From a bacterium (lineage in GTDB: Bacteria > Elusimicrobiota > Elusimicrobia > Elusimicrobiales > UBA9959): a stretch of DNA of 64,000 nt. Each line of letters begins with the position of its first letter. The stretch's first letter is position 1. Made by a program: the position numbers and the translations under genes. Positions 10,589 through 38,631 of the stretch are shown here, one piece after another. The notes under the pieces were generated by a model. It worked only from the letters and a program-made list of their open reading frames with translations, did not search any database and had not been told where the DNA came from. The DNA is taken from the NCBI GenBank assembly GCA_021847485.1, contig JAJZRA010000002.1, positions 20,078 to 84,077 of the forward strand, in the 5' to 3' direction.

Positions 10589-10677
10589 CCCCCCGGCCGC
10601 CGTCGGCCGCGGGGCCGCGCGGGGAGCCGGGTTTTTGCTTGCCTGAAAAAGAGGTTAAAAGGTATATTATCAACAGT

Positions 10678-11934: not shown

Positions 11935-11935
11935 T

Positions 11936-12604
11936 ATGAAATTCATAAAGAAACACATTCCCCTCCTGATAGTGCTGGTGGTCGGCGTGCTGACGCTGGC
12001 CTCCTACTACGTGCCGAACAAGTACTCGGTCGACTACCTCGAGCTGATGAACAAGTGGGAGAACATAGTTTCCGCCTTCGCGTTCCTGCTCGGCCTCATC
12101 AGCCTGTTCTACTCGCACTATAACAAGATCAAGCGCAAGACCGACGGCTGGGGCTACAGCCTGTTCGTCTACGTCGGCTTCCTCGCGATGGTGGTGCCGG
12201 CGCTGATGAACGGCGGCAGGCAGATGGTGGACGGCCAGGTCACCTCGCTGGGCTGGTCCTTCCGCTACATCTACAACGCGCTGAGCGCCACGATGTTCGC
12301 GGTCCTCGCGTTCTACATCGTGTCGACCGCCTACCGGTCGTTCAGGATCAAGTCCGCGCAGGCCTTCGTGCTGTTCGTGGCGGCCTTCATCCTGATCCTG
12401 GGCAAGGTGCCGCTCGGCCAGATCATCTGGGACTCGGTGCTGGGCTGGACGCATACCGGCATAGACCAGGTCATAGAGTGGATCATGAGCGTGCCCGCCG
12501 TGGCCGGCAAGCGCGGCATCATGATCGGCATCGCGATAGGCGCGGTGGTCACCTCGCTGAAGATCATCTTCGGCATCGAACGCCAGTACATGGGCAGGGA
12601 CTAA
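11936..12604 (+). CDS. polytopic membrane protein of unknown function
   Basis: About 6 hydrophobic helices. 1-nt gap after the previous gene. Confidence 0.75.
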   Translation: MKFIKKHIPLLIVLVVGVLTLASYYVPNKYSVDYLELMNKWENIVSAFAFLLGLISLFYSHYNKIKRKTDGWGYSLFVYVGFLAMVVPALMNGGRQMVDGQVTSLGWSFRYIYNALSATMFAVLAFYIVSTAYRSFRIKSAQAFVLFVAAFILILGKVPLGQIIWDSVLGWTHTGIDQVIEWIMSVPAVAGKRGIMIGIAIGAVVTSLKIIFGIERQYMGRD

Positions 12605-12608
12605 TACG

Positions 12609-13430: not shown

Positions 13431-13439
13431 GAGGTGATT

Positions 13440-14168
13440 ATGACAGAACCTTGGATGATTGCGGGCGCGTGGCTGGCCGCGGGCCTTACGATATTCCTCT
13501 TCAGCTTCCTCTACAGGGACAACCCGTTCTTCAAGATCGCGGAGCACCTGTACCTCGGCGCCGGCATGGGCTGGTGGTTCCAGGTGTACATGTTCAACAT
13601 CTGGAAGCCCAAGGTCTGGGAGCCGCTGATGGCGCACCAGTGGGGCGTGATCATACCGGCTGTGCTGGGCCTGTCGCTCGTGACCCAGTTCATCCCGAAG
13701 ATCTCGTGGCTCTCCCGCTACGGCTTCACGTTCCTGATGGGCTACGGCGCGGGCCTCGCGGTCCCCGCCGGCCTCTCCACGGACTTCATGAACCAGATCG
13801 CCGGCACGATCCGGCCGTTCTCGGCCCTGGCCTCGATGACCCCGTTCGCGATCTTCAACTCGCTGCTGATCGCGCTGGGCGTGGTCTGCGTGCTGTTCTA
13901 CTTCTTCTTCTCGGTCGAGCACAAGGGCTCGGTCAAGAAGGTGTCGAACGTCGGCATCTACTTCCTGATGGTCTACTTCGGCGCGGCCTTCGGCAACACC
14001 GTGATGGCCCGCTTCTCGCTGCTGTACGGCCGCTTCGACGACCTGGCGAGCTTCAGCTCCCGCGGCAGCTTCTACGCCACGCAGATCATCCTGGCGGTGA
14101 TGGTGCTCTACTTCCTGGTCACCGGCTTCACGAAGAAGCCGCAGCAGGGCGAGGAAGAGGCGCACTAA
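13440..14168 (+). CDS. polytopic membrane protein of unknown function
   Basis: ATG 13440 is preceded by AAGAGGTG. The track start 13434 is a GTG inside the RBS spacing. About 6-7 helices. Confidence 0.75.
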   Translation: MTEPWMIAGAWLAAGLTIFLFSFLYRDNPFFKIAEHLYLGAGMGWWFQVYMFNIWKPKVWEPLMAHQWGVIIPAVLGLSLVTQFIPKISWLSRYGFTFLMGYGAGLAVPAGLSTDFMNQIAGTIRPFSALASMTPFAIFNSLLIALGVVCVLFYFFFSVEHKGSVKKVSNVGIYFLMVYFGAAFGNTVMARFSLLYGRFDDLASFSSRGSFYATQIILAVMVLYFLVTGFTKKPQQGEEEAH

Positions 14169-16220: not shown

Positions 16221-17489
16221 TCATTTGCCCGTCAGCCAGGCGAGGAAGGCGCCCCACGAGGAGTCCGCCGCCCAGGAGAGCTCGGCGTAGGCCGCCGGCG
16301 GCCGGGTGCCGGGGAGGTAGACGGCCAGGCCCGAGGCCAGGCCGTAGTCCGCGGGTTCGAGCCCGTCGGGGACCTGGGCGTAGTTGGCGGCGGCCCGGAA
16401 AGGGACGAGCGGGCCCCGCAGGTGGGCGGCCAGCGCGGCCGCGGCGCCGCGCAGGCGCTGGTCGCGGGCTTTGGCGGCCACGTAGTCCAGGAAGGAGCCC
16501 AGGTCCTTGTTGTCGTCGTAGGCGTAATGCTGGGCGTAATAGAGGCCGCGCTTCATGACGCCGCGGTCGCCGGCGGCCATCGCCGCCTCCGCGAAGGCGG
16601 CCGTCAGCTCCCGCAGGCGGGGCAGGGCGGAGGCGTCCAGCGCGCTGAGCGTGGCGCCCGTGCCCTGCGCCGCGTAGTAGGCGCCGTAATCCGAGACCAG
16701 CTCCCCCGCCAGGGCGCGCGGCGCCATGCCCGGGGCGGCCGTGAGGGCGGCCAGGACGGCGTCGTACGGGTAGCCGTCGGCCGGCTCGGTCTCCTCGGAA
16801 CCGACGATATAGGAGGCGAGGTCCCTGAGCTCCCAGGCCACCTCCGGCATCTGCATCAGGCAGGCGTCCGAGGCGTAAACGTCGGCTCCGCCCGCCGCGC
16901 GCAGGGCCTGCGCCAGCTGCCGCACCGTTATGTGGGAGCCGCTCTCGTCGTCGTAGGAGATGCCGCGCGGGCCGGCGGCGGACTTGGTCCAGCCGGAGCC
17001 GTGGTTCCAGACCACGAGCAGGTACTTCCGGGCCGGGTAGGAGGCCTTGGCCCAGCGGATGAAAGCCGCCAGTTCCCGGTAGTCGCCCATGTCGGCGGGG
17101 CCCAGGTCGGCCAGGACCGGCGAGGTCACGGCGCCGCGGTCCAGGTCCCGCGTCACGTAATAGCGGCGCACGCCGGTCCAGTCCCCGTCGCCGGCGTAAT
17201 AGCCCTTCATCCTGCCCAGCTCGGCGACGATGCTGACCCGGTCCGTGGACCCGGCGGCCTCCAGCTCGTTGAGGTCCTTCAGGCCGAACTCCTCCAGGTT
17301 GTTCTTGGCGTTCAGGTAGACCATCACGGTCCAGTCGGCGGGCGCGGGGCGCCGCGGCCGCTCCGGCGCGGGCGGCGCCGGGACGCGCGCCGCGTCCGCC
17401 GCGGTGAGGCCCGGCAGCCCCAGGGCGCCGGCCGTCCCGGCCAGGGACAGCCAGAGCGCGGCGGCGGATAAGGCCCGGGCTTTGGTCAT
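16221..17489 (-). CDS. clostripain-family (C11) cysteine peptidase, secreted
   Basis: Signal peptide. WTVMVYLNAKNNLE, catalytic His context VVWNHGSGW and Cys context YASDACLM. Confidence 0.85.
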   Translation of the reverse strand: MTKARALSAAALWLSLAGTAGALGLPGLTAADAARVPAPPAPERPRRPAPADWTVMVYLNAKNNLEEFGLKDLNELEAAGSTDRVSIVAELGRMKGYYAGDGDWTGVRRYYVTRDLDRGAVTSPVLADLGPADMGDYRELAAFIRWAKASYPARKYLLVVWNHGSGWTKSAAGPRGISYDDESGSHITVRQLAQALRAAGGADVYASDACLMQMPEVAWELRDLASYIVGSEETEPADGYPYDAVLAALTAAPGMAPRALAGELVSDYGAYYAAQGTGATLSALDASALPRLRELTAAFAEAAMAAGDRGVMKRGLYYAQHYAYDDNKDLGSFLDYVAAKARDQRLRGAAAALAAHLRGPLVPFRAAANYAQVPDGLEPADYGLASGLAVYLPGTRPPAAYAELSWAADSSWGAFLAWLTGK

Positions 17490-17495
17490 TGGTAT

Positions 17496-17501
17496 ATTAT
17501 A
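17496..17501 (-). promoter_or_regulatory. -10 box TATAAT 6 nt upstream of the C11 peptidase ATG (leaderless-type)
   Basis: Minus strand reads TATAAT-atacca-ATG (ATG 17489..17487). Confidence 0.45.
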
Positions 17502-17542
17502 GCCGATAAGGCCGCCGCGGTTCCCGACGGCCCCTGAAAAGA

Positions 17543-17567
17543 AGAAGCCGGCGCGGGGCCGGCTTCT
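17543..17567 (-). terminator. rho-independent terminator of the hydrogenase operon
   Basis: Minus strand reads AGAAGCCGGC-cccgc-GCCGGCTTCT followed by TCTTTTC, 19 nt after the stop at 17586. Confidence 0.65.
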
Positions 17568-17585: not shown

Positions 17586-17990
17586 TTACTTGCCGTAATG
17601 GCGGCGCAGCTCCTTGCGGTCCACGTGGGCCAGCTCGAAGTCCTGCGTCATGATCAGCGCCTTCTTGGGGCAGGTCTCCACGCACTGCGCGCAGAACACG
17701 CAGTGGTCGAGCTTCATGATGCAGTCGAACAGCTTCTTGGCCGGGGCGGCGGGCTGCCCTTCCACGGGCGCCGGGGCCGGCGGCTGGTCCTTCGAGAGCA
17801 CGATCTCGATGGCCTTGGAGGGGCACACGCGCACGCACATCTGGCAGCCTATGCACTTGTCCTGCTCGAAGGCGATGCGGCCGCGGAAGTGCGGCATGAT
17901 CCGCGCCGGCTCGAACGGGTAGGCGCAGGTGGCCGGCTTCTTGAAGAGGTGCTTTATGACTTCGCTGAAGACTCTTGCGGGTTTTTTCAT
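17586..17990 (-). CDS. 2x[4Fe-4S] ferredoxin subunit (NuoI/MbhN/HycF-like)
   Basis: CIGCQMCVRVCP and CVFCAQCVETCP motifs. Last gene of the operon. Confidence 0.85.
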   Translation of the reverse strand: MKKPARVFSEVIKHLFKKPATCAYPFEPARIMPHFRGRIAFEQDKCIGCQMCVRVCPSKAIEIVLSKDQPPAPAPVEGQPAAPAKKLFDCIMKLDHCVFCAQCVETCPKKALIMTQDFELAHVDRKELRRHYGK

Positions 17991-17994
17991 GGAG

Positions 17995-18939
17995 TTATCC
18001 TAGTTTGGACTTGAGGAAGATGTCGAAAGCCACCTGGGCCATCGCCACCGGGGCCAGGTACTTCCAGCAGAAGTTGATCATCTGCTCGATGCGGATGCGG
18101 GCCATCAGCACCTTCAGCAGCGCCAGCAGGAAGGTGATGAAGAGGGTCTTGACCAGGAACACGCCGACGCCGGCCAGCCCGGCCAGGCCCAGCGTGCCGC
18201 CCAGGAAGACCGCGTTGACCAGCGCCGCGCCGACGACGAGCTCCATGTCCACGGCCAGCAGGAAGAAGTCCAGCAGGCGGCCGGAGTACTCGGTGAACTG
18301 GCCGCCGACGATCTCGTTCTTGGCGTGCGGGATGTCGAACGGCAGGCGCTCGAGCTTGCCCTGCAGCGCGATCAGCGCCGCGCCGAAGCCCAGCAGCTGG
18401 GCCGGGATCAGCGACGGGTGCGCCGCGAAGAAGGCGGAGATCTCGGAGACGCTCCAGGAGCCGGCGAGGATGGCCGGGCCGATCAGCGCGAGCATCAGCG
18501 GCACCTCGTAGGCGAACAGCTGGGTCAGCACGCGCATCGAGCCGACGGTCGAGTAGGGGCTCGTGGAGCTCCAGCCGGCCAGGAAGAACGTCACGGTCGG
18601 GATCGTCAGCAGGTAGATCACGGCGATCAGGTCGCCCTGGAACGAGAACAGCGCTCCGGGGGTCCAGACCGGGATCGAGACCAGCGCGGTCATCACGGCG
18701 GCCATCGCGAAGAACGGCAGCGCGCGGAACATGCGGGACTCGGCGTAGTCCGGTACGATGACCTCCTTGGCCAGCAGCTTGATGAAGTCGGCGTAGGGCT
18801 GGAACCACGGAGGGCCCATGCGGTTCTGCATCACCGCGCAGAGCTTGCGGTCCACCCACTGCAGGAGCAGCCCGTAGACGGCCAGGAACAGGAAGCCCGG
18901 GAAGACGATTATGTACGCGAGGGGAAGTATGGATTCCAT
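17995..18939 (-). CDS. membrane subunit NuoH/MbhM/HycD-like
   Basis: WVDRKLCAVMQNRMGP...ADFIKLLAKE...PFDIPHAKNEIVGGQFTEYSG, the NuoH-family signature. Confidence 0.9.
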   Translation of the reverse strand: MESILPLAYIIVFPGFLFLAVYGLLLQWVDRKLCAVMQNRMGPPWFQPYADFIKLLAKEVIVPDYAESRMFRALPFFAMAAVMTALVSIPVWTPGALFSFQGDLIAVIYLLTIPTVTFFLAGWSSTSPYSTVGSMRVLTQLFAYEVPLMLALIGPAILAGSWSVSEISAFFAAHPSLIPAQLLGFGAALIALQGKLERLPFDIPHAKNEIVGGQFTEYSGRLLDFFLLAVDMELVVGAALVNAVFLGGTLGLAGLAGVGVFLVKTLFITFLLALLKVLMARIRIEQMINFCWKYLAPVAMAQVAFDIFLKSKLG

Positions 18940-18954
18940 TTAGTTGTCCTTATA

Positions 18955-20148
18955 TCACAGCCTGGTGAAGTCCACGCCGCGGCGCCTGTACTGCTCGATG
19001 CTCATCTTGCGCAGCTCCTCCCAGCCGTAGACCTGGGTCTTGCCCTTCTTGGGGTCCCAGACGGCGGCGCGGTCGGTGCAGGACATGCACGGGTCTATCG
19101 CCGCGATCACGAGCGGCACGTCGGCCAGCCAGCCGCCCTCGAGCATGTACGCCACGCTCTGCAGGTTGGCCAGGGTGGGGGCGCGCACCTTCAGGCGCTC
19201 GGGCTTGTCGGTGCCGTTGGACTTCAGGTAGTGGATGTCCTCGCCGCGCGGGGCCTCGTAGTGGTTGACGGCCTCGCCGGGGGCGATGCGCATGGGCACC
19301 TTCACGGCTATCGGGCCCTCGGGCAGGTTGTTGAGGATCTGCTCGATCATCTTGTACGACTCCACGAGCTCCAGCGCGCGCACGACCAGGCGGCCGAAGA
19401 CGTCGCAGGAGTCGTGCGTGATCACCTTAAAGTCGAGCTCGTTGTAGATCAGGTAGGGCTCGTCCTTGCGGACGTCGCGGGCCAGGCCCGAGGCGCGGGC
19501 CGTGGGGCCCACCGCGCCGCGCTCTATGGCCACGTCGAGCGGGAGCTTGCCCACGTTCTGCGTGCGGGCGAGCACGGTCGGCTCCTCGGTGGCGAGCTTG
19601 ATGTAGTAGTTGGTCCTCTCCTTGAGGTACTGGATGCGCTTCAAGACCTCGGCCTTCTGCTCGGCCGTGATGTCGCGGCGCACGCCGCCGAGGGTGTTGA
19701 TGGAATAGTGCACGCGGTTGCCGGAGAGGAGCTCGAGGCAGTCGAGCACCTGCTCGCGGTCGCGCCAGGTGTACATGAACAGCGTCTCGAAGCCCATCTC
19801 GTAGCCGGCGACGCCCAGCCACAGCAGGTGGCTGTGCACGCGCTCGAGCTCGCCGAACAGCGCGCGGATAGCGAGCGCCCGCTTGGGGGTCTCGGCCTTG
19901 GCGAGCTCCTCGACGTTGGTGATGTAGCAGGTCGTGTGCGAGTGGGAGCAGATGCCGCAGACGCGCTCGATCAGGTAGAGGTCCTGGATATAGGTGCGTT
20001 CCTCGGCGGCCTTCTCCATGCCGCGGTGATTATAGCCCAGGTTGACGGTCGCGCCGGAGATCTGCTCGCCTTCCAGGACGAGCATGAAGTTCTCCGGCTC
20101 CTTGAGGGCGGGATGCTGGGGGCCCAGCGGGATGGTGATCTTGGACAT
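18955..20148 (-). CDS. group 4 [NiFe]-hydrogenase large subunit (NuoD homologue with both Ni-binding Cys pairs)
   Basis: RVCGICSHSH (Cys64/Cys67) and DPCMSCTDR near the C-terminus, followed by a 37-aa tail. Confidence 0.9.
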   Translation of the reverse strand: MSKITIPLGPQHPALKEPENFMLVLEGEQISGATVNLGYNHRGMEKAAEERTYIQDLYLIERVCGICSHSHTTCYITNVEELAKAETPKRALAIRALFGELERVHSHLLWLGVAGYEMGFETLFMYTWRDREQVLDCLELLSGNRVHYSINTLGGVRRDITAEQKAEVLKRIQYLKERTNYYIKLATEEPTVLARTQNVGKLPLDVAIERGAVGPTARASGLARDVRKDEPYLIYNELDFKVITHDSCDVFGRLVVRALELVESYKMIEQILNNLPEGPIAVKVPMRIAPGEAVNHYEAPRGEDIHYLKSNGTDKPERLKVRAPTLANLQSVAYMLEGGWLADVPLVIAAIDPCMSCTDRAAVWDPKKGKTQVYGWEELRKMSIEQYRRRGVDFTRL

Positions 20149-20624
20149 TATTTGGCCTCCGTTTCGTTGGCGGGCGGGACGAACTTCCAGTCCTTGCGCA
20201 GCGGGTACTGGTCGGTCGGGAAATCCTCGGGCAGCGGGTAGCGGCGGCCGGGCGGCAGGCCGGCGATCTTGATGCCGAGCATGTCCTCGAGCTCGCGCTC
20301 GTAGGACAGCGCGCCCGGGAACGACGCCAGCACGGACGGGAGGGACGGGTTGGCGCGCGGCGTGCGGACCTTCACGTTGACGATCATCTTGGTGTCGGTC
20401 GCGTGGTAGTAGGCGCCCAGGTTCTCCCCCTCGTCGAAGCCGGTCACGGTGGCGAGGTGGTCGAAGCCTTCGGCCTTCAGCCAGGCCATCAGCTCCGGGA
20501 GCTTCTCCGGGGCCACCTCGAGCCAGACGCGGTTCCTGCGCTGGACCAGGGCGTTGGAGACCGCGCCTGCGAAGCGGGCCTCGATGTCGGACTTTACCTT
20601 TTCTTCTCTGGCGAGATCGGTCAT
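20148..20624 (-). CDS. NuoC/MbhK-like subunit
   Basis: 158 aa, with the ...SYERELEDMLGIKIAG.P... motif typical of NuoC-type 30-kDa subunits. Confidence 0.85.
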   Translation of the reverse strand: MTDLAREEKVKSDIEARFAGAVSNALVQRRNRVWLEVAPEKLPELMAWLKAEGFDHLATVTGFDEGENLGAYYHATDTKMIVNVKVRTPRANPSLPSVLASFPGALSYERELEDMLGIKIAGLPPGRRYPLPEDFPTDQYPLRKDWKFVPPANETEAK

Positions 20625-20634
20625 TATGGGTTCC

Positions 20635-21072
20635 TCACTTCTTGCCTTCGACGCTCTGGATCAGCTTGACGACGCCGTCGATGATGGCCTCGGGGCGCAC
20701 GGGGCAGCCCGGGATGTAGACCGAGACCGGCAGCGTCTTGTCGACGCCGGGGATGACGCCGTAGCAGCCGTTGAAGACGCCGCCCGAGCAGCCGCAGGCG
20801 CCGACGGCCATCACGAACTTGGGCTCCGGCATCTGGTCGTAGATCGTCTTCAGGCGCTTGGCCTGCTGGCGGGTCACTGGGCCGCTGACCACGAGGATGT
20901 CGGCGTGGCGCGGCGTGGCCTTCAGGACCATGCCGAAGCGCTCCACGTCGTACTTCGGGGTCAGCGCGTCCACTATCTCGATGTCGCAGCCGTTGCAGGC
21001 GCCGGAATTGAAATGCAGGATCCACGGCGATTTCAGCAGCGACCAGGTTATCAGTTTGTCGAATGTTTTCAT
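20635..21072 (-). CDS. hydrogenase small subunit / NuoB-like (one [4Fe-4S])
   Basis: ATG 21072 (track start 21084 is a TTG). Motifs GACNGCD, VGACGCSGG, IPGCPVRP. Confidence 0.85.
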   Translation of the reverse strand: MKTFDKLITWSLLKSPWILHFNSGACNGCDIEIVDALTPKYDVERFGMVLKATPRHADILVVSGPVTRQQAKRLKTIYDQMPEPKFVMAVGACGCSGGVFNGCYGVIPGVDKTLPVSVYIPGCPVRPEAIIDGVVKLIQSVEGKK

Positions 21073-21076
21073 GTTC

Positions 21077-21418
21077 TTATCCAACGAAGAGGATCGCGAG
21101 GATGACGACTACGGCCGCTATATAGCCTCCCACCAGCTCGATGCCGGCGGACAGCGGGTTGAAGCTCCAGGTGGCGAGCATCAGGCCCGCCACGTGCAGC
21201 AGCGTAAAGAAGATCGCGAACGGGAAGAAGACCTGATAGTCGGGGACGGCCCGGGCCTGCTCCTCGGGGACTTCCTCGCCGCAGCCGTAGGCCTTGTGCT
21301 TGGCGGAGCCGGGCACGCGGGCCGGCTTGGCGGCCAGCGGGCTCAGCAGCGCGGACAGGCCCATCACGAACAGCAGCGAGATGACGAACACGACCGGAGG
21401 GAAGAGGAGTATTTCCAT
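21077..21418 (-). CDS. small membrane subunit, NuoA/MbhI-like
   Basis: 3 TM helices. AYGCGEE...FFPFAIFFTLLHVAG resembles the NuoA YECGF...F.IFD core. Confidence 0.7.
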   Translation of the reverse strand: MEILLFPPVVFVISLLFVMGLSALLSPLAAKPARVPGSAKHKAYGCGEEVPEEQARAVPDYQVFFPFAIFFTLLHVAGLMLATWSFNPLSAGIELVGGYIAAVVVILAILFVG

Positions 21419-21422
21419 GGGG

Positions 21423-21728
21423 TTATCCTTTGAGGCTGTCGAGCTTCCAGATGTCGGCCGAGCCCTTCACGCGGAAGTTCTTGACCAGCAGCGCCAGGCC
21501 CGCGGCCACCACGACGACCTCGATCACGATCATCGTGATCAGCAGCGCCTGCGCGAAGACGAGGTTGGCCGTCAGCGCGCCGGCGGAGATCACCGTCAGC
21601 ATCGCGGCCTTGGAGACGATCTCCAGCCCGATGAGCTGGCGGACGATGCTGCGGGAGGCCAGCATGCAGTAGAAGCCGGCGAACAGCAGCAGGGCTATCA
21701 TGTACCAGTCGAAAGCGAAGACGCTCAT
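21423..21728 (-). CDS. small membrane subunit, NuoK/MnhC/MbhG-like
   Basis: Internal ATG of track ORF 21423..22163 (ATGA overlap with the upstream stop). 101 aa, 3 TM helices, LIGLEIVSKA motif. Confidence 0.75.
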   Translation of the reverse strand: MSVFAFDWYMIALLLFAGFYCMLASRSIVRQLIGLEIVSKAAMLTVISAGALTANLVFAQALLITMIVIEVVVVAAGLALLVKNFRVKGSADIWKLDSLKG

Positions 21729-22210
21729 TTCTCGGTCCTCCTCGGGAACACCGACTTGATGACGAACACGCCGGCCGCCAGCATCAGCACCTGGCCGAGC
21801 AGGTCCGGGCGGCGCAGGTCCCACAGGGCCAGGCCGATCGTGCCGCCGCCGGAGGCCATGCGCCTCCAGCCGGCCAGCGCGTCGAAGAACTCCGGCAGGT
21901 AGAACCAGGCCGCTATCGCGAAGGCCGCGAGGGCCAGCGGCAGCGCGTAGAAGCGCGCGCGGCTCTCGGGGTGCTTCTCGTCCTCGTGGCGGATCAGGCT
22001 GACCGCGCCCACGAAGAGGACCGTGATCAGGCCGGCGCAGACCGACAGCTCGAACACGCCGGCCCACGGGGCGCCGAGGTTGAAGAAGATCAGCGAGACG
22101 GTCACGCTGACCAGCGCGAGCATGATCGCGCTCGTCAGCAGCCTGCGGGCCATGACGGCCCACATCGCGAAGACGACCGCGGCCGCGAACAGCAGGGCGT
22201 GGTAGATCAT
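21725..22210 (-). CDS. membrane subunit, NuoJ/MbhD-E-like
   Basis: 161 aa. LTSAIMLALVSVTVSLIFFNLGAPWAGVFELSVCAGLITVLFVGAVSL resembles the NuoJ core. Confidence 0.7.
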   Translation of the reverse strand: MIYHALLFAAAVVFAMWAVMARRLLTSAIMLALVSVTVSLIFFNLGAPWAGVFELSVCAGLITVLFVGAVSLIRHEDEKHPESRARFYALPLALAAFAIAAWFYLPEFFDALAGWRRMASGGGTIGLALWDLRRPDLLGQVLMLAAGVFVIKSVFPRRTEK

Positions 22211-23637
22211 AGTATTATCCTTTCAGCCACCATCTTGACGTAGGTGTAGAAGTACGGGAACAGCAGGCCGAGGGCCACGATGACGGCGCTCATCAGCACC
22301 GCCGGCGCCAGCAGCGGCGCGGAGACCTCGGGCGAGCTCTCGGCGGCCTGGCTCTTGCGGCCGAAGAAGACCTTCTTCTGCATCATCATGAAGTAGGCCA
22401 GCGTCACGATGCTGAACAGCAGCGCGAGCACGGCGTAGGTCTTCAGGCCGGCCTCCCAGAGGGCCAGGATGATCAGCAGCTTGCTCCAGAAGCCGGACAG
22501 CGGCGGCACGCCGGCGGTGGACAGCAGCGCGACGACCGAGGTCCAGGAGGTCCAGGGCATCGAGTGCTCCATCCCCCCCAGCTTCTCCATGTCGGTGGTG
22601 CCGGCGGACTTCTCGAGGCTCGCGCTGTTGAGGAACAGCACGGTCTTGAAGGTGGCGTGGTTGAACAGGTGGAAGATCGCGCCCATGACGGCGAGCGGCG
22701 TGCCGAGGCCGGCCGCGAGCACGATGTAGCCGACCTGGCTGATGCTGGAGAAGGCCAGCATGCGCTTGAAGTCGGTCTGCTTGAGCGCGGCCAGCGCGCC
22801 CACGGCTATCGACAGCATGCCGAGGAACATCAGGATCCCGGACAGGGCCTGCGCCCGGCCGTCGAAGAAGCGCAGCAGCGTCGCCAGCTTGATGATCGCG
22901 TAGACGCCGGAGATCTTCGTCACGATGCCGGCCAGGTGGGCCGAGACCGGGGCGTAGGCGCCCTGGTAGGCGTCGGGCGTCCACGTGTGGAACGGCACGA
23001 CGCCGGCCTTGATGATGAAGCCCAGCATGATCAGCGCCGCTCCGAACGTCACCGGGCCGGACGGGATGTCCGAGGCCATGAAGACGCGCAGCGCGTCGAA
23101 GGACAGGCTGCCCAGCGACAGCATCAGGACCGAGATGCCGGCGATGATCAGCGCGGAGGCCGGGAAGGTCAGGAAGAAGTACTTCAGCGCGCCCTCGAGG
23201 CCGGCGCCGGAGTCGTCGGTCGTGATCAGCGCGAACGACGTCACCGCGAGCACCTCGATGAAGACGTAAAGCGTGAAGAAGTCGGTGGTCGTGACCACGC
23301 CGGTCATCGCCGCCACCGAGACGAGGATCAGCGAGTAGTAGGCCTGCCGGTTAGGGAGCTTCTCGTCCAGGAACCACGCGGAGAAGAAGGTCACGCAGAG
23401 GCCGACCAGGTAGACCGCCGAGACCAGCAGCAGCGAGAACCCGTCGCCCGGGATGTCGGCGAAGCCGCCGGCGATCACGGAGGGCCGCAGCGCCAGCCAC
23501 AGCAGGTTGACGAGCCCGGCCAGCAGCGTGACGTTGGCCAGCAGGTCGGCCAGCTTCGGCCGGTTGCGCGCGGCGAACGGTATGACGACCGCGCTCAGCA
23601 GCGGGATCAGGAGGTAAGCCAGAAGTCCCTTATCCAT
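22207..23637 (-). CDS. antiporter-like subunit (NuoN/M, MrpD, MbhH family)
   Basis: ATG 23637 with GGAGGA RBS (track start 23655 is a TTG). Proton_antipo_M-type core ...PFHTWTPDAYQGA... Confidence 0.85.
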   Translation of the reverse strand: MDKGLLAYLLIPLLSAVVIPFAARNRPKLADLLANVTLLAGLVNLLWLALRPSVIAGGFADIPGDGFSLLLVSAVYLVGLCVTFFSAWFLDEKLPNRQAYYSLILVSVAAMTGVVTTTDFFTLYVFIEVLAVTSFALITTDDSGAGLEGALKYFFLTFPASALIIAGISVLMLSLGSLSFDALRVFMASDIPSGPVTFGAALIMLGFIIKAGVVPFHTWTPDAYQGAYAPVSAHLAGIVTKISGVYAIIKLATLLRFFDGRAQALSGILMFLGMLSIAVGALAALKQTDFKRMLAFSSISQVGYIVLAAGLGTPLAVMGAIFHLFNHATFKTVLFLNSASLEKSAGTTDMEKLGGMEHSMPWTSWTSVVALLSTAGVPPLSGFWSKLLIILALWEAGLKTYAVLALLFSIVTLAYFMMMQKKVFFGRKSQAAESSPEVSAPLLAPAVLMSAVIVALGLLFPYFYTYVKMVAERIIL

Positions 23638-23638
23638 G

Positions 23639-25489
23639 TTATTTAAGTCCTCCAACCAGCAGGATGTAAACGACGGCGCCCAGCAGGGTCAGGGCCAGGT
23701 AGAGCGGGTAGGAGCCGTTGTGGAAGCCGCGCGAGACGCGGCTGAAGAAGCCCGCGGTGGAACTGGGCGCGGTGTCGATGACCCAGTCGAAGAAGCGGTC
23801 CGCCCGGTAGAGCGTCCTGGAGAAGAGCGGGACCGCGCGGTCCATGCCCTGCTCGTAGATGTCGAACGCGCGCTTTTCGGCCAGCGCGTAGGCTTCCTTC
23901 AGCACCGGGGCGTAGTGGATGTGGTCGGAGGCCTTGTCCGCCTTCCCCCCGCCGTAGGCCAGGCCCAGCATGTGGTTGACCACCGCCGCCAGGATCACTA
24001 TCACGGAGAGGAAGTAGAGCTTGTCCGGGTGGAAGCCGGCCAGGTAAGGATGCGGGATGTTCAGCCCGGCGAGCGCCGGAGAGATGAACAGGTTTATCGG
24101 CAGGCTGGCTCCGAAGCCGAAGGCCACGCAGACGGCGGCGAGGGCCAGCATCGGCAGCAGCATCGAGAACGGCGCTTCCTTGACGTCGCGCAGTTCCTCG
24201 GGGCGCCTGCCGAAGAAGACCGAGTGGCCCAGCTTCAGGAACGAGGCCAGCGTAAGGAAGGAGCCGAGCTCGGCCGCCAGGAAGAACACGGTGTAGCCTG
24301 TCTCGAGGGAGCCCTTGTAGACGAGCTCCTTCGAGAAGAAGCCGTTCAGCGGGGCTATGCCCGAGATGGCCGCGGCCGCTATGACGAAGCAGAGGACGGT
24401 CACCGGCATCGCGCGCCAGAGGCCGCCGAGTTTCGTCAGGTCGGTCGTGCCGGCCTGGCGCTCCACGGAGCCCGAGGTCATGAACAGGCAGGACTTGTAG
24501 GTCGCGTGGTTGATCATGTGGAACAGGCCGCCCGCTATACCTATGGGGTTCAGCGTGCCGATGCCCAGGATCATGTAGCCGGTCTGGCTGACCGCGTGGT
24601 ACGAGAGCAGGCGCTTGTAGTCCTTCTGCACGAAGGCCATCATCACGGCGACGAGGATCGTCACCGCGCCGAGGGTCATCAGGACCAGCGACATCGCGTT
24701 GTTGAGCTGGAACAGGTAGACGCTGGCGCGGGCCAGGAAATAGATGCCGAGCAGCTTGTCGATCGCGGCCGGGACGTAGGCCATGAACGGCGCGGAGGAG
24801 TCGGTGGCGGCGTCCGGGATCCAGGTGTGGAACGGGAACGCGCCGGCCTTGGCCACGGCGCCTATCAGCAGCAGCACGTAGGCGAACACGCTCCAGCCGT
24901 AGTCGAGCGTCAGCTTGTTGTGCGAGATCTCGCTCATGCTCATCGTGCCGGCGATGTAGCCGGTGATCGTGATGCCCACGAGCAGGCAGACGTCGGTAGC
25001 GCCGTTGATGAGGAAGGCCTTCATCGCGGTGCGCTTGGCCTCGCGGGTATCCTGCGAGAGCGCTATGAAGGTATAGAGGAAGATCAGCAGGCCTTCCCAG
25101 AAGAACAGCATCGCTATCAGGTTGTCGGCCAGCGCCGCGCCGGCCGCGAAGGCCTGCGTCATCAGCAGGTTGAAGAAGAACCACTTGGACGGACCTTTCT
25201 TCGGCAGGCTGAACGAGTACAGCGCGATCGCCGCGGAGAACAGCGAGACCGCCAGCAGCAGGAACGCGCTGAGCTGGTCGGCGCGCAGCGTGAAGACCGC
25301 CGCCGTCCCGAACCAGCGCCAGCTCAGCATGTCGGGCGGCTGCAGGAAGACGTTGGCCGCCGCCAGCAGCGAGACGAGCGCGGCGCCGGACGCCAGGAGC
25401 TCCTTGAGGTACTTGGTCCTCTCGCTGATGAGCAGCAGCGCCAGGGCCGTGACGACCGGGAGGACTATCGGGATGAGTATCAGGTTCAT
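23639..25489 (-). CDS. antiporter-like subunit, long form (NuoL/MrpA-like)
   Basis: Internal ATG 25489 of track ORF 23639..25816 (ATGA overlap with the upstream stop). 616 aa. FPFHTWIPDAATDSSAPFMAY core. Confidence 0.85.
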   Translation of the reverse strand: MNLILIPIVLPVVTALALLLISERTKYLKELLASGAALVSLLAAANVFLQPPDMLSWRWFGTAAVFTLRADQLSAFLLLAVSLFSAAIALYSFSLPKKGPSKWFFFNLLMTQAFAAGAALADNLIAMLFFWEGLLIFLYTFIALSQDTREAKRTAMKAFLINGATDVCLLVGITITGYIAGTMSMSEISHNKLTLDYGWSVFAYVLLLIGAVAKAGAFPFHTWIPDAATDSSAPFMAYVPAAIDKLLGIYFLARASVYLFQLNNAMSLVLMTLGAVTILVAVMMAFVQKDYKRLLSYHAVSQTGYMILGIGTLNPIGIAGGLFHMINHATYKSCLFMTSGSVERQAGTTDLTKLGGLWRAMPVTVLCFVIAAAAISGIAPLNGFFSKELVYKGSLETGYTVFFLAAELGSFLTLASFLKLGHSVFFGRRPEELRDVKEAPFSMLLPMLALAAVCVAFGFGASLPINLFISPALAGLNIPHPYLAGFHPDKLYFLSVIVILAAVVNHMLGLAYGGGKADKASDHIHYAPVLKEAYALAEKRAFDIYEQGMDRAVPLFSRTLYRADRFFDWVIDTAPSSTAGFFSRVSRGFHNGSYPLYLALTLLGAVVYILLVGGLK

Positions 25490-26925
25490 TGCAGGTTCAC
25501 TCCTAAAGAGCCGGTGAGGAGCTCGGTGTAGACGGCCGGGTAGTGGATCAGGAGGCCGAGGGCCAGGCCTATCAGGGCCAGCGCCATCACGCTGGCTACC
25601 ATCGTATAGGAACCCTCGCGGGGGTTGCCGTGGCCGGCGGGCTCGCCGAGGAAGACCTTGTAGAACAGGCGGACCAGGTACAGCAGGGTCATGATCGCGC
25701 CGACGAAGAACATCAGCAGCACCGGCAGGCTGCCGTTCTGCGCGGCGCCGGCGAAGACCAGGTACTTGCTGAAGAAGCCGCCGAACGGCGGGATGCCCAT
25801 GACCGACAGCGAGCACAGCGCGAAGGCCGCCCCGGTGACCGGCATCGAGGAGAACAGGCCGCCCATCTTGGTGATGTCCTTGGTGTGGGTGTTCTGCTCG
25901 ATGATGCCGGCGCAGAGGAACAGCCCGCCCTTGGCGACGCTGTGCATCAGGATGTAGAGCAGGCCGCCGACGAAGGCCGTCTTGTTGCCGCTCGCGAGGC
26001 CGAGGAAGATGAACGCGATCTGGCTGACGGTAGAGTAGGCGATGATCCTCTTGATGTCGGTCTCGATCAGCGCGGCGCCCGCCGAGACCAGCGCGGAGGC
26101 GCCGGCCAGGTACAGCACGGTGTTCGAGAAGGCGTCGGGCGCGGCGAACGTCACGCCGAAGATGCGGGCGTAGGCGTAGACGCCGATCTTGACCAGCACG
26201 GCCGCGTGCAGCAGCGAGGTCACGGTGGAGGGCGCGACGCCGGCGTCCGGCAGCCAGGTCGAGAACGGCAGCGTGGCCGACTTGGAGAGGATGCCGGCCA
26301 GGATGAAGGCGGCCGCGGCGTAGGAGATCGCCTGGCCGTGCAGCGCGCGCAGGTCGAGCGTGCCGTGGTCGAAGTAGACCATGATGATGCCGACCAGCAT
26401 GCAGAGCGCGCCGAAGACCGTCACGAGGATGGTCTTATTGGCCTTGGCCACGTCGCGGTCGGAGCGGAAGAAGCCCACCAGCCTCCAGCTCGCGAAGCCG
26501 GTCATCTCCCAGAACACGTACATCCACAGCAGGTTCGCGGAGAAGACCAGGCCCATCATCGAGCCGAGGAACAGGACCACCATCGTGTAGTACTCGGTCT
26601 GGTTCTCGTAGTGGGAGATGTAGTCCAGCGAGTAGATCAGGATCACCGCGCTGACGAAGGCCGAGATCGAGGCCATGAAGACCGACAGCAGGTCGGCGTG
26701 CAGGATGAAGTCGAAACCGCGCGGGAAAGAGAGCGAGAAGCTGGCGGTCTGCCCCCCCAGCACGGTAGGGGCGAGCGCGGCGGCCGCCGTGAAGGTTGCC
26801 AGGCCCAGGAGCACGGCGTAGGTGTTCCTGGCGGCGACCGAGAGCCGGCCGGCGAGCGGGATCAGGAACGCGCCGAAGACCGGTACTGCGACTGCGAGGG
26901 TAAGGAGTTTGATCGGTAGGTCCAT
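25486..26925 (-). CDS. antiporter-like subunit (NuoM/N, MrpD family); first gene of the operon
   Basis: 479 aa polytopic protein. LPFSTWLPDAGVAPSTVTSLLHAA core. Confidence 0.85.
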   Translation of the reverse strand: MDLPIKLLTLAVAVPVFGAFLIPLAGRLSVAARNTYAVLLGLATFTAAAALAPTVLGGQTASFSLSFPRGFDFILHADLLSVFMASISAFVSAVILIYSLDYISHYENQTEYYTMVVLFLGSMMGLVFSANLLWMYVFWEMTGFASWRLVGFFRSDRDVAKANKTILVTVFGALCMLVGIIMVYFDHGTLDLRALHGQAISYAAAAFILAGILSKSATLPFSTWLPDAGVAPSTVTSLLHAAVLVKIGVYAYARIFGVTFAAPDAFSNTVLYLAGASALVSAGAALIETDIKRIIAYSTVSQIAFIFLGLASGNKTAFVGGLLYILMHSVAKGGLFLCAGIIEQNTHTKDITKMGGLFSSMPVTGAAFALCSLSVMGIPPFGGFFSKYLVFAGAAQNGSLPVLLMFFVGAIMTLLYLVRLFYKVFLGEPAGHGNPREGSYTMVASVMALALIGLALGLLIHYPAVYTELLTGSLGVNLQ

Positions 26926-26932: not shown

Positions 26933-26938
26933 ATTATA
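26933..26938 (-). promoter_or_regulatory. -10 box TATAAT 7 nt upstream of the first hydrogenase-operon ATG (leaderless-type)
   Basis: Minus strand reads TTGTATAAT-agaaggc-ATG (ATG 26925..26923), inside the only AT-rich stretch between two operons. Confidence 0.45.
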
Positions 26939-27018: not shown

Positions 27019-27047
27019 AAAAAAAGGGCCGGCCCGGAGGCCGGCCC
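27019..27047 (-). terminator. rho-independent terminator after the carboxyltransferase gene
   Basis: Minus strand reads GGGCCGGCC-tccg-GGCCGGCCC followed by TTTTTTT. Confidence 0.7.
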
Positions 27048-27067
27048 TTCCTTAGCGTAACGTCAGG

Positions 27068-28705
27068 TTACAGCGGGATGTTGCCGGTGCGCGGCTGCTC
27101 CCCCGGGCGGCGCTTGTCCGCCAGCAGGCGGAAGGCCGCGATCAGGCGGCTGCGGGCCTCGGTGGGCTCTATGACCTCGTCCACCGAACCCATCGAGGCG
27201 GTCTGGTAAGGCGAGGCGAACTTGTCGGAGTATTCCTTGGCGAGCTTCACGCGCAGGGCCTCACGCTCCTCCTCCTTGGCCTCCTTGATCTGGCGCGAGT
27301 AGAGGATCTCCACCGCGCCGCGCGGGCCCATCACGGCGATCTCGGCCGAAGGCAGCGAGAAATTGATGTCGCCGCCCATCAGCTTGGAGCTCATCGCGAT
27401 GTAGGCGCCGCCGTAGGCCTTCCTGAGCACCAGCGTGATCTTCGGCACGGTGGCCTCGGCGTAGGCGTACAGCAGCTTCGCGCCGTGGCGGATGATGCCG
27501 CCGTGCTCCTGCGCCACGCCGGGCCAGTAGCCGGGAACGTCCACGAGCGTCAGGATCGGGATGTTGAAGCTGTTGAGGAACCTGATGAAGCGCGCGGCCT
27601 TGTCCGAGGCGTTGATGTCCAGCGCGCCGGCCATGTGGGCCGGGTTGTTCGCTATCACGCCGACGACCTGCCCGCCCAGGCGGATGAAGCCTATCACGAT
27701 GTTCTTGGCGTAGTCGTGGTGCACCTCGAGGAACTTGTGGTCGTCGGAGAGCCACCAGACTATGTGGTTGACGCGGTAAGGCTTGCGCGGGTCCACCTCG
27801 CAGAGCTTCTCCATCAGCGCGACCTTGCGGGCGGCGGGGTCCTTGGTCTCCAGGGCCGGCGCGGCCTCGAAGCGGCTCTGCGGCAGGAAGCTCAGCAGCT
27901 CCTTGACCTGCCGGTAGCAGTCCGGCTCGGAGTTGGCCACGAAGTGGCAGACGCCCGACTTGGAGGCGTGCGTCGTGGCGCCGCCGAGCGTCTCGAAGTC
28001 CACCTCTTCGCCGGTGGCGGCCTTCACCACCTCGGGGCCGGTCACGAACATGTTGCTCATGCCCCTGACCATGAAGACGAAGTCCGTCAGCGCCGGGGAA
28101 TAGACGGCGCCGCCGGCGCACGGGCCGACGATGACCGAGATCTGCGGCACCACGCCCGAGTACTTGGTGTTGCGGTAGAAGATCTCGCCGTAACCGTCGA
28201 GGGAGTCGACGCCCTCCTGGATGCGGGCGCCGCCCGAGTCCAGGATGCCGATGACGGGGCAGCGCGCGTCGGCCGCCATGTCCATCAGCTTGGCGATCTT
28301 GTCTGCGTGCGTGCGGCCCAGCGAGCCGCCCAGCTGCGTGAAATCCTCGGAGAAGATCGCCGCGGGCCGGCCGCCGATCCTGCCGAAGCCGGTGATGACG
28401 CCGTCGCCCTTGATGTGCTTGTCCTTGATGCCGAAGTCGGTGCAGCGGCTTTCCATCAGCAGGCCGAGTTCCATGAAGGAGCCCTCGTCCACCAGGTAGG
28501 CGATGCGCTCGCGGGCGGTCAGCTTGCCCTTCTTGCGCTGGGCCTCCACCTTGTCCGGCGGCCCGCCGGCCTCGGCCGCGGCGTGGACCTCGCGGAACTT
28601 CCTGAGGGATTCCGGGACCACGCGCACCTTCTTGGGGTGGGACTTCTTCCCCGAGGGCTGCGGCTCTTCCTTGGTTCCGGTTATGGGATCTATGATATCG
28701 GCCAT
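27068..28705 (-). CDS. acyl-CoA carboxylase carboxyltransferase subunit (PccB/AccD5/MmdA family)
   Basis: 545 aa. GKLTARERI..L.D.GSF.E, GGRP..IFSEDFT..GGS.G, GPCAGGAVYSPALTDF, AYGGAY motifs. Confidence 0.9.
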   Translation of the reverse strand: MADIIDPITGTKEEPQPSGKKSHPKKVRVVPESLRKFREVHAAAEAGGPPDKVEAQRKKGKLTARERIAYLVDEGSFMELGLLMESRCTDFGIKDKHIKGDGVITGFGRIGGRPAAIFSEDFTQLGGSLGRTHADKIAKLMDMAADARCPVIGILDSGGARIQEGVDSLDGYGEIFYRNTKYSGVVPQISVIVGPCAGGAVYSPALTDFVFMVRGMSNMFVTGPEVVKAATGEEVDFETLGGATTHASKSGVCHFVANSEPDCYRQVKELLSFLPQSRFEAAPALETKDPAARKVALMEKLCEVDPRKPYRVNHIVWWLSDDHKFLEVHHDYAKNIVIGFIRLGGQVVGVIANNPAHMAGALDINASDKAARFIRFLNSFNIPILTLVDVPGYWPGVAQEHGGIIRHGAKLLYAYAEATVPKITLVLRKAYGGAYIAMSSKLMGGDINFSLPSAEIAVMGPRGAVEILYSRQIKEAKEEEREALRVKLAKEYSDKFASPYQTASMGSVDEVIEPTEARSRLIAAFRLLADKRRPGEQPRTGNIPL

Positions 28706-28841: not shown

Positions 28842-29510
28842 CTATTCTACCTTTTTATCGCCGCCGGTTCGGCCGGCTATGACGGCCGTCCAGAAGCCCT
28901 CGGGCTCGCGGCGGGTCTCCAGGACGAAAGCCGGGCTGCCCAGTTCCCTGTAGCGCTCCAGCGTCTTGCCGAGGAAGGAGACCTTCTCCCCCGCCACCCG
29001 GATGTCTATCGGGTCGGCCATCAGGCCGAGGCCCAGGGCCTTCATCGCCGCTTCCTTCACGGCCCACAGGCGCGTCCCCTCGGACGCGTCCGGCTCCGGC
29101 AGCTCGGCGGGGTGGAAGTAATCCGAGTACCAGGCGGGATGCCTGTCCTCTATCTTCTCCAGGTCCAGCCCCAGGAACGAGGAGCCGGGCTTGAAGGCCG
29201 CGGCGGCCCAGCCCCCGGAGTGGGAGATGGACAGCAGCGCGCCGCCGCACGACGGGCGGCCGAGCAGGTCCGACTCTATCTCCAGCTCGGCCGGCGGCTT
29301 GCCGGTGTACTCGGCCAGCAGCGCTTTGGCGGCCAGCCGGCCGGCCAGCCACTCCGCGCGCCGCTTCTCTATCCGGAAGGAGGACAGGACCTTCACTTCC
29401 TTGTGCGAGAGGTCCTGGCCCGGGAGCAGGCCTTCCACCTTTATCGTCCTTACCCTGGTCTCCGTCGCGGGCCAGAGCGCGGAGGTCTCATGTTGTCTTA
29501 CGGTGTTCAT
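28842..29510 (-). CDS. 4'-phosphopantetheinyl transferase, Sfp type
   Basis: SISHSGGW, GLDLEKI and WAVKEAAMKA motifs. Starts 13 nt after the synthase stop. Confidence 0.85.
   Translation of the reverse strand: MNTVRQHETSALWPATETRVRTIKVEGLLPGQDLSHKEVKVLSSFRIEKRRAEWLAGRLAAKALLAEYTGKPPAELEIESDLLGRPSCGGALLSISHSGGWAAAAFKPGSSFLGLDLEKIEDRHPAWYSDYFHPAELPEPDASEGTRLWAVKEAAMKALGLGLMADPIDIRVAGEKVSFLGKTLERYRELGSPAFVLETRREPEGFWTAVIAGRTGGDKKVE

Positions 29511-29523: not shown

Positions 29524-38631
<9,108 letters not shown>

Follow-up and report, generated by a model that had tools for sequence, protein, structure and literature searches.

The DNA examined here, hereafter the window, is a stretch of 64,000 nucleotides (nt) from an Elusimicrobiales bacterium (contig JAJZRA010000002.1 of assembly GCA_021847485.1). 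Its minus strand carries a run of eleven tightly packed genes, from 26925 to 17586, which a first-pass annotation had read as one operon with the subunit content of complex I and a hydrogenase-type large subunit. The present analysis indicates that this operon most likely specifies an eleven-subunit [NiFe]-hydrogenase of group 4, membrane-bound and energy-converting, which would be ferredoxin-coupled, reversible and ion-translocating and would work without the Mrp sodium module.

Genes and boundaries of the operon

The genes and the signals around them are given below in the direction of transcription; L1, L2 and L3 are the three antiporter-like proteins, and sizes are in amino acids (aa).

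27019..27049, minus strand: terminator-like hairpin and T-run of the upstream carboxyltransferase gene, from sequence reading (RNAfold, -31.6 kcal/mol)
26933..26938, minus strand: -10-like TATAAT, 7 nt before the first ATG, read from the sequence (no -35 element from the scanner)
25486..26925, minus strand: antiporter-like L1, 479 aa (Pfam PF00361, Proton_antipo_M, and PF00662, Proton_antipo_N)
23639..25489, minus strand: antiporter-like L2, 616 aa (Pfam PF00361; NCBIfam NuoL profile over residues 2-611)
22207..23637, minus strand: antiporter-like L3, 476 aa (Pfam PF00361)
21725..22210, minus strand: NuoJ-like protein, 161 aa, counterpart of MbhD plus MbhE (Oxidored_q3, 44.6 bits; MbhD, 27.3 bits)
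21423..21728, minus strand: NuoK/MrpC-like protein, 101 aa (Oxidored_q2, 62.5 bits)
21077..21418, minus strand: NuoA/ND3-like protein, 113 aa, three transmembrane (TM) helices (Oxidored_q4, 28.6 bits at a cut-off of 23.3)
20635..21072, minus strand: NuoB-like hydrogenase small subunit, 145 aa (Oxidored_q6)
20148..20624, minus strand: NuoC-like protein, 158 aa (Complex1_30kDa, 92.5 bits)
18955..20148, minus strand: NuoD-like [NiFe] large subunit, 397 aa (Complex1_49kDa, PF00346, and NiFeSe_Hases, PF00374)
17995..18939, minus strand: NuoH-like membrane anchor, 314 aa (NADHdh, 255.7 bits)
17586..17990, minus strand: NuoI/MbhN/HycF-like 2x[4Fe-4S] protein, 134 aa (two CxxCxxCxxxCP motifs; Fer4 families; BLAST matches to Hfo-I, HycF and NuoI)
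17543..17567, minus strand: predicted terminator, a GC-rich hairpin plus TTCTTTT, 19 nt past the last stop codon (RNAfold, -33.9 kcal/mol for a 61-nt stretch)

Start and stop coordinates and protein sizes coincide with those given in the first-pass annotation. The junctions between the genes, in order, are -4, +1, -4, -4, +4, +4, +10, -1, +15 and +4 nt, and this packing leaves no space for extra open reading frames (ORFs) between them. A ribosome-binding site of the GGAG/AGGA type precedes every internal gene. The Pfam assignments of the first ten products all exceed the curated cut-offs and the 134-aa protein carries its 4Fe-4S motifs, which bears out the claim that the operon holds homologues of the eleven core subunits of minimal complex I. 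NCBIfam returned the same homologies, with Nuo models as the best matches, mostly under their equivalog cut-offs. Because of these mostly sub-cut-off scores, we regard none of the subunits as a standard orthologue of a Nuo or Mrp protein.

The operon is probably a single transcription unit, as had been proposed: a generic scan found no excess of internal promoter-like or terminator-like sites over shuffled sequences, and the hairpin at 27019..27049 sets the carboxyltransferase gene apart. The -10 box and the terminator that were said to bound the operon are present by reading and by folding, but a generic promoter and terminator scanner run over the operon region lists neither TATAAT 26933..26938 nor the hairpin 17543..17567 among its sites, and both remain plausible predictions. 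Rfam searched over the window gave no RNA family, hence no riboswitch or leader element upstream of the operon.

With its position so near to the first ATG, the TATAAT may drive a leaderless or near-leaderless transcript. The geometry of TATAAT, 7 nt and ATG upstream of L1 is repeated in two close relatives (loci L015 and L016), and in the downstream peptidase C11 unit of the window a TATAAT ends 6 nt before the ATG (17489-17503, minus strand). Since TATAAT lies close to the ATGs that lead such units while internal genes have Shine-Dalgarno sequences, the pattern suggests leaderless mRNAs in this Elusimicrobiales clade.

Catalytic subunits and membrane arm

The large subunit carries the two nickel-binding motifs of [NiFe]-hydrogenases, RVCGICSHSH as the L1 motif (C64 and C67, with CGICSHSH from C64 to H71) and DPCMSCTDR as the L2 motif (C354 and C357, within D352 to R360). 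Both fit the published criteria for group 4 enzymes, C[GS][ILV]C[AGNS]xxH and [DE][PL]Cx[AGST]Cx[DE][RL], respectively (PMC7886697). All four Ni-binding cysteines are thus in place, as they are in 175 of 209 aligned relatives, every reference included. Furthermore, the protein ends in a C-terminal extension of 37 aa that aligns with the cleaved tail of Escherichia coli HycE. With both motifs intact and a tail of the HycE type, the earlier description of the catalytic subunit as Cys-complete and hydrogenase-competent appears well founded.

Among solved structures, the large subunit matches Pyrococcus furiosus MbhL best (E 5e-97), then E. coli HycE, with NuoD homologues after these. Over aligned columns, its identity is 48% to MbhL, about 41% to HycE and HyfG, 30% to E. 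coli NuoCD and 50 to 54% to the nearest clusters outside its own family. In the small subunit, the non-consecutive Cys ligands of the proximal [4Fe-4S] cluster form the pattern CNGC...GACG...GCP, which aligns with HycG, HyfI and Hfo-B, the latter from the archaeal hydrogenase Hfo; E. coli NuoB has a tandem CC there. With Hfo, the window shares 69% identity in the small subunit, 41% in the H subunit and 50% in the large subunit. The group 4 set is completed by the NADHdh anchor, the three Proton_antipo_M proteins and the Fer4-containing NuoI-like subunit, the last of which is the probable entry point of electrons from ferredoxin.

The same gene content could be taken for an eleven-subunit complex I, a ferredoxin:quinone oxidoreductase in which the hydrogenase motifs are mere relics and quinone is reduced. 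All eleven core homologues are indeed present, the NuoA/J/K-like subunits and a NuoL-like lateral helix included, and the best NCBIfam matches are Nuo models, if mostly under the cut-offs. However, the family keeps all four Ni ligands without exception, the ligands of the small subunit are of the CxxC type and not a CC pair, the cleavable extension is kept, with a linked gene for the HycI maturation peptidase in most relatives, and identity to E. coli NuoD is only 30%. We consider a quinone-reducing complex extremely unlikely.

For the three antiporter-like proteins, a check of the channel residues had been proposed; in all of them, the charged residues of the complex I/Mrp proton path at TM5 (Glu), TM7 (Lys), TM11 (His) and TM12 (Lys) align. 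The TM8 Lys and His align in L1 only; in L2 and L3 a Lys a few residues off, read by eye from the translation, is likely the TM8 equivalent. L1 is a core of the NuoL/MrpA/HyfD type that lacks a lateral helix or C-terminal extension. Its top solved structures are E. coli NuoL and MrpA, and its BLAST bit scores are 197 to NuoL, 195 to HyfD and 192 to Hfo-L. L2 and L3 score best with MrpD, MbhH and MbsH, which are also the top solved structures for L3, and by bit score they are nearer to each other than to NuoM, NuoN or Hfo M/N. In contrast to Hfo L/M/N, which are reciprocal best hits of NuoL/M/N, neither L2 nor L3 is a reciprocal best hit of NuoM/N or Hfo-M/N. By these comparisons, L1 to L3 are not one-to-one orthologues of NuoL/M/N.

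The C-terminal region of L2 is conserved in the family, and the sequence HNGSYPLY with a TM helix behind it makes its end similar to those of HyfB and NuoL. An AlphaFold2 model of L2 built with 44 homologues (predicted local distance difference test 84, predicted template modelling score 0.83) shows, towards the C-terminus, TM15 and some short helices, then a helix of 45 residues (544-588), and TM16 (594-611) at the very end. Foldseek aligned the whole model with NuoL, Nqo12, ND5 and NdhF over about 640-660 columns at a template modelling score of 0.79-0.84, whereas with MrpD and MbhH the 490-residue core alone aligns. The model is consistent with an MrpD/MbhH-like core to which TM15, a lateral helix and TM16 of the NuoL type are added, the direction and span of the lateral helix being judged from secondary structure and from Foldseek alignment lengths.

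The smaller membrane subunits retain the expected residues. The J-like and K-like proteins keep membrane Glu residues, in K those of TM2 (GLEIV) and TM3, and in J a conserved Glu that aligns with NuoJ and Hfo-J. The A-like protein has a YGCGEE loop, as in ND3/NuoA, which aligns with Hfo-A (YACGER) and E. coli NuoA. In Margulisiibacteriota (L075; P0438, P0440 and P0441), L1 and L2 are fused into a protein of about 1000 aa, so L1 and L2 are expected to be neighbours in the complex. L3 probably sits next to J/K. A plausible order for the arm would be Q-module/H, A/J/K, L3, L1 and L2, with the helix of L2 running back over L1 and L3.

Distribution, neighbours and placement of the family

Relatives were counted as one genome per GTDB species by means of two large-subunit peptide patterns; 594 of 600 retrieved stretches encode one, a lower bound, so that at least 594 species-level genomes carry a relative of the window's large subunit. 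Loci were compared for the best 80 of these at least 594 relatives (55-91% large-subunit identity), by searching their ORFs with the window's eleven proteins. The full order L1-L2-L3-J-K-A-B-C-D-H-I is found in 47 of the 80 best loci, and a contiguous part of it, cut by the end of the contig, in 21 more; most of the other 12 deviate only because small ORFs were missed or C and D are fused. Locus L090, the sole archaeal member of an otherwise bacterial family, clearly stands apart with the order J-K-L-L-A-B-C-D-H-I. The best 80 loci span about 15 phyla, namely Elusimicrobiota, Bacillota, Planctomycetota, Omnitrophota, Spirochaetota, Fibrobacterota, Bipolaricaulota, Actinomycetota, Margulisiibacteriota, Kiritimatiellae/Verrucomicrobiota, Myxococcota and several candidate phyla. 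Such conservation over about 15 phyla suggests that the 11-gene order is under selection.

Large-subunit identity is 55-95% to family members and at most 54% to the representatives of other clusters formed at 50% identity. The nearest relatives (85-95% identical) are metagenome-assembled genomes (MAGs) of groundwater Elusimicrobia/Elusimicrobiales, and the identical large-subunit protein occurs in the NCBI MAG GCA_021836445.1 and several metagenome assemblies.

The hycI gene directly follows subunit I in 47 of the 59 loci with enough downstream sequence, whereas the seven closest Elusimicrobiales relatives with enough sequence (L012 and L014-L019) show no hycI over a distance of about 10 kb. 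The window's large subunit keeps its cleavable extension despite the lack of hycI in the 64 kb, and hycI is unlinked in the window's clade. A word-indexed protein search with HycI of Elusimicrobium minutum as the query, aimed at an unlinked hycI in this clade, gave 5 uninformative matches.

Potential redox partners were sought both in the window and around the relatives. In the part of the window annotated by Pfam (1.4-17.5 and 27-44.5 kb), there is no NuoE/F/G, MrpE/F/G, formate dehydrogenase, CO dehydrogenase, hyp or hycI gene, and phmmer with Hyp, HycI and HycB queries against all window ORFs found no hyp or hycI, HycB weakly matching the NuoI-like subunit only. Genes past about 45 kb were identified from their translations. 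Taken over both parts, the earlier statement that the window has no NuoE/F/G, MrpE/F/G, formate dehydrogenase or CO dehydrogenase is supported. Likewise, the flanks of the 80 loci show no recurring formate dehydrogenase, CO dehydrogenase, NuoEFG or Mrp E/F/G-like gene; what does recur there is limited to hycI, hyp genes and a membrane pyrophosphatase-like gene.

These neighbourhoods bear on two further explanations of the operon. One is a sodium-translocating Mbh/Mrp-type enzyme like P. furiosus MBH, in which one antiporter-like subunit would exchange an H+ for a Na+ gradient. MbhL is the closest solved large subunit, L2 and L3 match MrpD and MbhH best, and the literature labels the family as Mbh-Mrp type. 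Against this, the subunits MbhA/B/C/F (MrpE/F/G/B), the proposed Na+ path of MBH, MBS and Mrp, are not in the operon, do not recur in the flanks of the 80 loci, and would find no room between the genes. A sodium-translocating enzyme thus appears improbable.

The other would make the operon one half, the hydrogenase part, of a formate- or CO-hydrogenlyase with its dehydrogenase encoded elsewhere in the genome, in parallel with E. coli Hyf. Hyf also has three antiporter-like subunits; L1 resembles HyfD (195 bits and identical length), and the C-terminal end of L2 resembles HyfB. However, no HyfA/HycB-type connector ferredoxin accompanies the operon (the weak HycB match being to the NuoI-like subunit only), and no formate or CO dehydrogenase lies in the window or recurs at the 80 loci. 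Moreover, C and D are separate genes as against the fused HycE/HyfG, and large-subunit identity to HycE/HyfG is only about 41%, as compared with 48% to MbhL and 50-54% to other ferredoxin-type relatives. This reading strikes us as very improbable.

Two observations concern other genes near the relatives. A gene of about 770 aa with a pyrophosphatase-like N-terminus, as judged by eye, adjoins the operon in 15 of the 80 loci (e.g., L025, 13153-15573), which hints at a shared role in building an ion gradient. In an Actinomycetota MAG (L050), the 11-gene operon is followed, beyond hycI and on the same strand, by a second, shorter group 4 set (B-C-D-H-I) whose large subunit has 375 aa.

In a neighbour-joining tree of 209 large subunits, the family falls outside the MbhL and HycE/HyfG clades. 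Bootstrap values on a reduced set were 5% (Hfo trio), 13% (family by itself) and 50% (family together with a Methanoregula cluster); the archaeal Hfo-type group, the sister in the 209-sequence tree, was dropped at that 5%. Owing to the weak bootstrap support, no HydDB subgroup and no sister group is assigned. In HydDB, group 4d is ferredoxin-coupled and Mrp-linked, and group 4g is a loose class of unknown function; a 2026 survey found 4g polyphyletic and 4d paraphyletic. Similar bacterial enzymes have been placed in 4g (PMC8542988).

The nearest outside clusters, taken as representatives at 50% identity, are from Methanoregula, Anaerolineales, Pelolinea, Bathyarchaeota and Asgard archaea. Their loci are arranged as J-J-K-(double antiporter fusion)-antiporter-A-B-C-D-H-I-HycI in Methanoregula, J-K-L-L-A-B-C-D-H-I-HycI in Anaerolineales and A-B-CD-H-I-J-K-L-M-N, the Hfo layout, at a Bathyarchaeota-type locus (L092). 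The Asgard (Promethearchaeota) locus is A-B-CD-H-I, with no J, K or antiporter genes within the flanks covered. Accordingly, the family sits among Mbh-like hydrogenases that are free of the Na+ module and have two or three antiporter-like modules in varying gene orders. On the Methanoregula-type contig (L093), the double antiporter-like fusion is 1094 aa long, and a second, Ech-like B-C-D-I set lies upstream.

The genes that flank the operon in the window are unrelated to hydrogen metabolism. Downstream are peptidase C11 (first after subunit I), an MscS channel and a rotamase, and the annotated genes on the other side are as follows.

27068-28705, minus strand: carboxyltransferase, upstream of the operon
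28842-29510, minus strand: 4'-phosphopantetheinyl transferase, upstream
29524-38712, minus strand: polyketide- or polyunsaturated-fatty-acid-synthase-like ORF of 3062 aa with KS, AT, several ACP, KR and DH domains, upstream
40623-43031, plus strand: cytochrome bd oxidase subunits I and II (CydAB)

Elsewhere in the window (10639-14168, plus strand), a DUF6754 protein is followed by three conserved membrane proteins that have no Pfam match. This four-gene set recurs, on the strand opposite to the operon, in L001 and L003, which have the identical large subunit.

Energy coupling and comparison with known systems

In the enzyme that we favour, reduced ferredoxin would give its electrons to the two [4Fe-4S] clusters of the NuoI-like subunit, from where they would pass to the proximal cluster of the NuoB-like subunit and on to the Ni-Fe site of the NuoD-like subunit, protons being reduced to H2 in a reversible reaction. 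The NuoH/A/J/K-like interface would couple this redox reaction to ion translocation by the complex-I-like arm, with the lateral helix of L2 (616 aa) clamping the three antiporter-like subunits. The Ni site, the CNGC small subunit, the HycI-type processing signal and the lack of a linked dehydrogenase together argue for such a ferredoxin-coupled, reversible, ion-translocating hydrogenase. Because the sodium module of the MrpE/F/G/B type is absent, the coupling ion is most likely H+. While the subunit homologies, the metal-ligand motifs, the channel residues, the conserved operon and the hycI linkage of most relatives are shown by the sequences, we infer the ferredoxin partner, the physiological direction, the coupling ion, the stoichiometry and the order of the arm subunits. 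A ferredoxin-coupled role agrees with published work on the Elusimicrobia enzymes (Méheust et al. 2020) and on groups 4g and 4d generally.

Several points weigh against this interpretation. The family is so far biochemically uncharacterised, and gene linkage gives no pointer to the electron donor. Besides, neither hycI nor hypA-F lies in the 64 kb of the window, and the seven closest relatives lack hycI in their flanks, so that maturation has to be assumed. A further difficulty is energetic. By standard redox values, with about -500 mV for ferredoxin and about -300 mV for H+/H2 (H2 near 10 Pa), transfer to protons releases roughly 39 kJ per 2 e-, and even very low H2 would not raise this above about 40 kJ per 2 e-. 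Such a yield would pay for about two H+ against 150-180 mV and not for a complex-I-like four. Therefore, the energy is too small for 4 H+ per 2 e-, and the coupling scheme cannot simply copy that of complex I. Ways out would be that some modules stay idle in each turnover or that the enzyme runs in reverse, with the proton motive force driving the reduction of ferredoxin by H2.

Reverse operation of the same machine, in which H2 is oxidised and a respiratory proton motive force drives the reduction of low-potential ferredoxin for biosynthesis, deserves attention as a possibility, although we think it unlikely to be the main role. In methanogens, the proton-motive-force-driven reduction of ferredoxin with H2 is the established role of Eha and Ehb. 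The many ion paths of the arm would suit the energy-consuming direction better than a weakly exergonic H2 evolution, as three or four inward proton paths per 2 e- would permit ferredoxin reduction at trace H2. The cydAB genes at 40623-43031 indicate that the organism is probably microaerotolerant or respiratory, which bears on the direction of the hydrogenase, and Lineage V Elusimicrobia have been described as respiratory, with complex I and bd oxidase. Reverse operation was also proposed for Hfo, which has the same subunit set, by Loh et al. (PMC7886697). On the other hand, Méheust et al. infer H2 production, the operon also occurs in strict fermenters such as E. minutum and many Bacillota, Omnitrophota and Planctomycetota MAGs, and the sequence itself fixes no direction. 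The reversible, ferredoxin-coupled hydrogenase stays our preferred reading.

Respiratory complex I is considered to descend from group 4 hydrogenases. Structures are available for hydrogenases and their relatives that have one antiporter-like subunit (MBH, FHL-1) or two (MBS), as well as for complex I, which has three, and we know of no hydrogenase with a three-antiporter arm that has been solved or measured. The present family has exactly this layout, is widespread in anaerobic bacteria and is present in cultivable Elusimicrobia. Although the window alone is of limited value, being one more member, the family offers a tractable system to ask how the ferredoxin-to-H2 reaction drives, or is driven through, a complex-I-like arm, and whether such an arm had a single or a multiple origin. 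On the latter question, we offer a proposal that is itself doubtful: the bacterial L1-L2-L3-J-K-A-B-C-D-H-I family might be an independent, non-archaeal route to a lateral-helix-clamped three-pump arm on an active hydrogenase. The arm would have been built from Mrp-type modules (a MrpA/NuoL-like core and two MrpD-like paralogues, one of which gained the lateral helix) and not inherited with NuoL/M/N. In that case, arms with three pumps would have arisen on at least two occasions, and the widespread family could serve as a present-day model of the transition from hydrogenase to complex I. The ratio of ions to electrons in this enzyme could not be that of complex I, since the ferredoxin/H2 couple releases too little energy.

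In the literature, Elusimicrobia enzymes were described as 'Mbh-Mrp type' group 4 hydrogenases, likely H2-producing and ion-translocating (Méheust et al. 2020, 10.1101/765248). A comparable enzyme from Saganbacteria with 'Mrp antiporter-like subunits but no oxidoreductase module', related to those of Pelobacter and Clostridia, was reported by Matheus Carnevali et al. (2019), and a 'group 4g Mbh linked to Mrp' in Omnitrophota, Cloacimonadota and Auribacterota by Williams et al. In Bathyarchaeia, Loh et al. (2021, PMC7886697) described Hfo, which is Cys-complete, has the eleven complex I core subunits in fpo/nuo order and lacks the Na+ module. They saw it as a bridge between hydrogenases and complex I, and noted group 4g as having no characterised enzyme. 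A structural review of complex-I-like enzymes counts one antiporter-like subunit in MBH, two in MBS and three in NDH/complex I and mentions no three-subunit hydrogenase, and in our literature search neither a bacterial equivalent of Hfo nor any named family of precisely this layout turned up.

The closest known match is the operon of E. minutum Pei191, a cultured bacterium of the same phylum whose complete type-strain genome was published in 2009; the operon lies there at about 1.22-1.24 Mb (CP001055.1). Its eleven genes follow the order of the window and encode subunits of similar size; the large subunits are 67% identical and share the motifs and the C-terminal extension. Right after subunit I, E. 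minutum carries a twelfth gene, hycI, which the window and its seven closest relatives with enough downstream sequence lack. The first-pass annotation had held that the known comparators all differ, and this does not stand: the same order occurs in E. minutum and in 47 of the 80 best loci, and the reports of Méheust et al. (2020) and Loh et al. (2021) are precedents. An identical operon structure has therefore been described already, although in no biochemically characterised member.

Hfo resembles the window in having A, B, C, D, H, I, J, K and three antiporter-like subunits, intact Ni motifs and neither a Na+ module nor an N-module. It differs in its nuo/fpo gene order, its fused C-D, its L/M/N subunits orthologous to NuoL/M/N and its archaeal host. 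Eleven-subunit complex I, NDH-1 and Fpo-like enzymes have the same eleven core homologues as the window, the NuoL-type lateral helix included, but have lost the four Ni-binding cysteines, have the tandem CC in NuoB and reduce quinone or methanophenazine. The earlier generalisation that eleven-subunit complexes have lost the Ni ligands does not hold, as Hfo is both eleven-subunit and Cys-complete (PMC7886697).

P. furiosus MBH (PDB 6CFW; group 4d) shares with the window the order A-B-C-D-H-I, as MbhI-J-K-L-M-N, a 48% identical large subunit (MbhL) and an expected ferredoxin-coupled, H2-evolving role. In contrast to the window, it has 14 subunits, only one of them antiporter-like (MbhH), and the Na+ module MbhA/B/C/F (MrpE/F/G/B). 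The window has three antiporter-like subunits, no Na+ module, J as one protein and the antiporter genes before J-K. The Mbh/Mbx pattern that had been claimed for the gene order is therefore right for A-B-C-D-H-I, which equals MbhI-N, but that part fits nuo equally well, and the antiporter genes lie before J-K; in the close Mbh-like outgroups, unlike the window, they lie between K and A. E. coli Hyf (hydrogenase 4, formate hydrogenlyase 2, FHL-2; group 4a) likewise has three antiporter-like subunits, with HyfB similar to L2 in the C-terminal helix and HyfD to L1 (479 aa), and a large subunit processed by HycI, as expected for the window. It differs in the HyfA connector, formate dehydrogenase H, a fused C-D, the lack of a NuoA-like subunit and another gene order.

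Taken together, the operon in E. minutum, the 'Mbh-Mrp type' enzymes of MAG surveys and the concept of an eleven-subunit, Cys-complete hydrogenase in archaea are already known, and the window is a further member of a widespread, still uncharacterised enzyme family. What appears under-described is the loss of hycI linkage in the window's clade, the lack of one-to-one orthology with NuoL/M/N, the lateral helix on an MrpD-like subunit, and the breadth and strictness of the bacterial layout.

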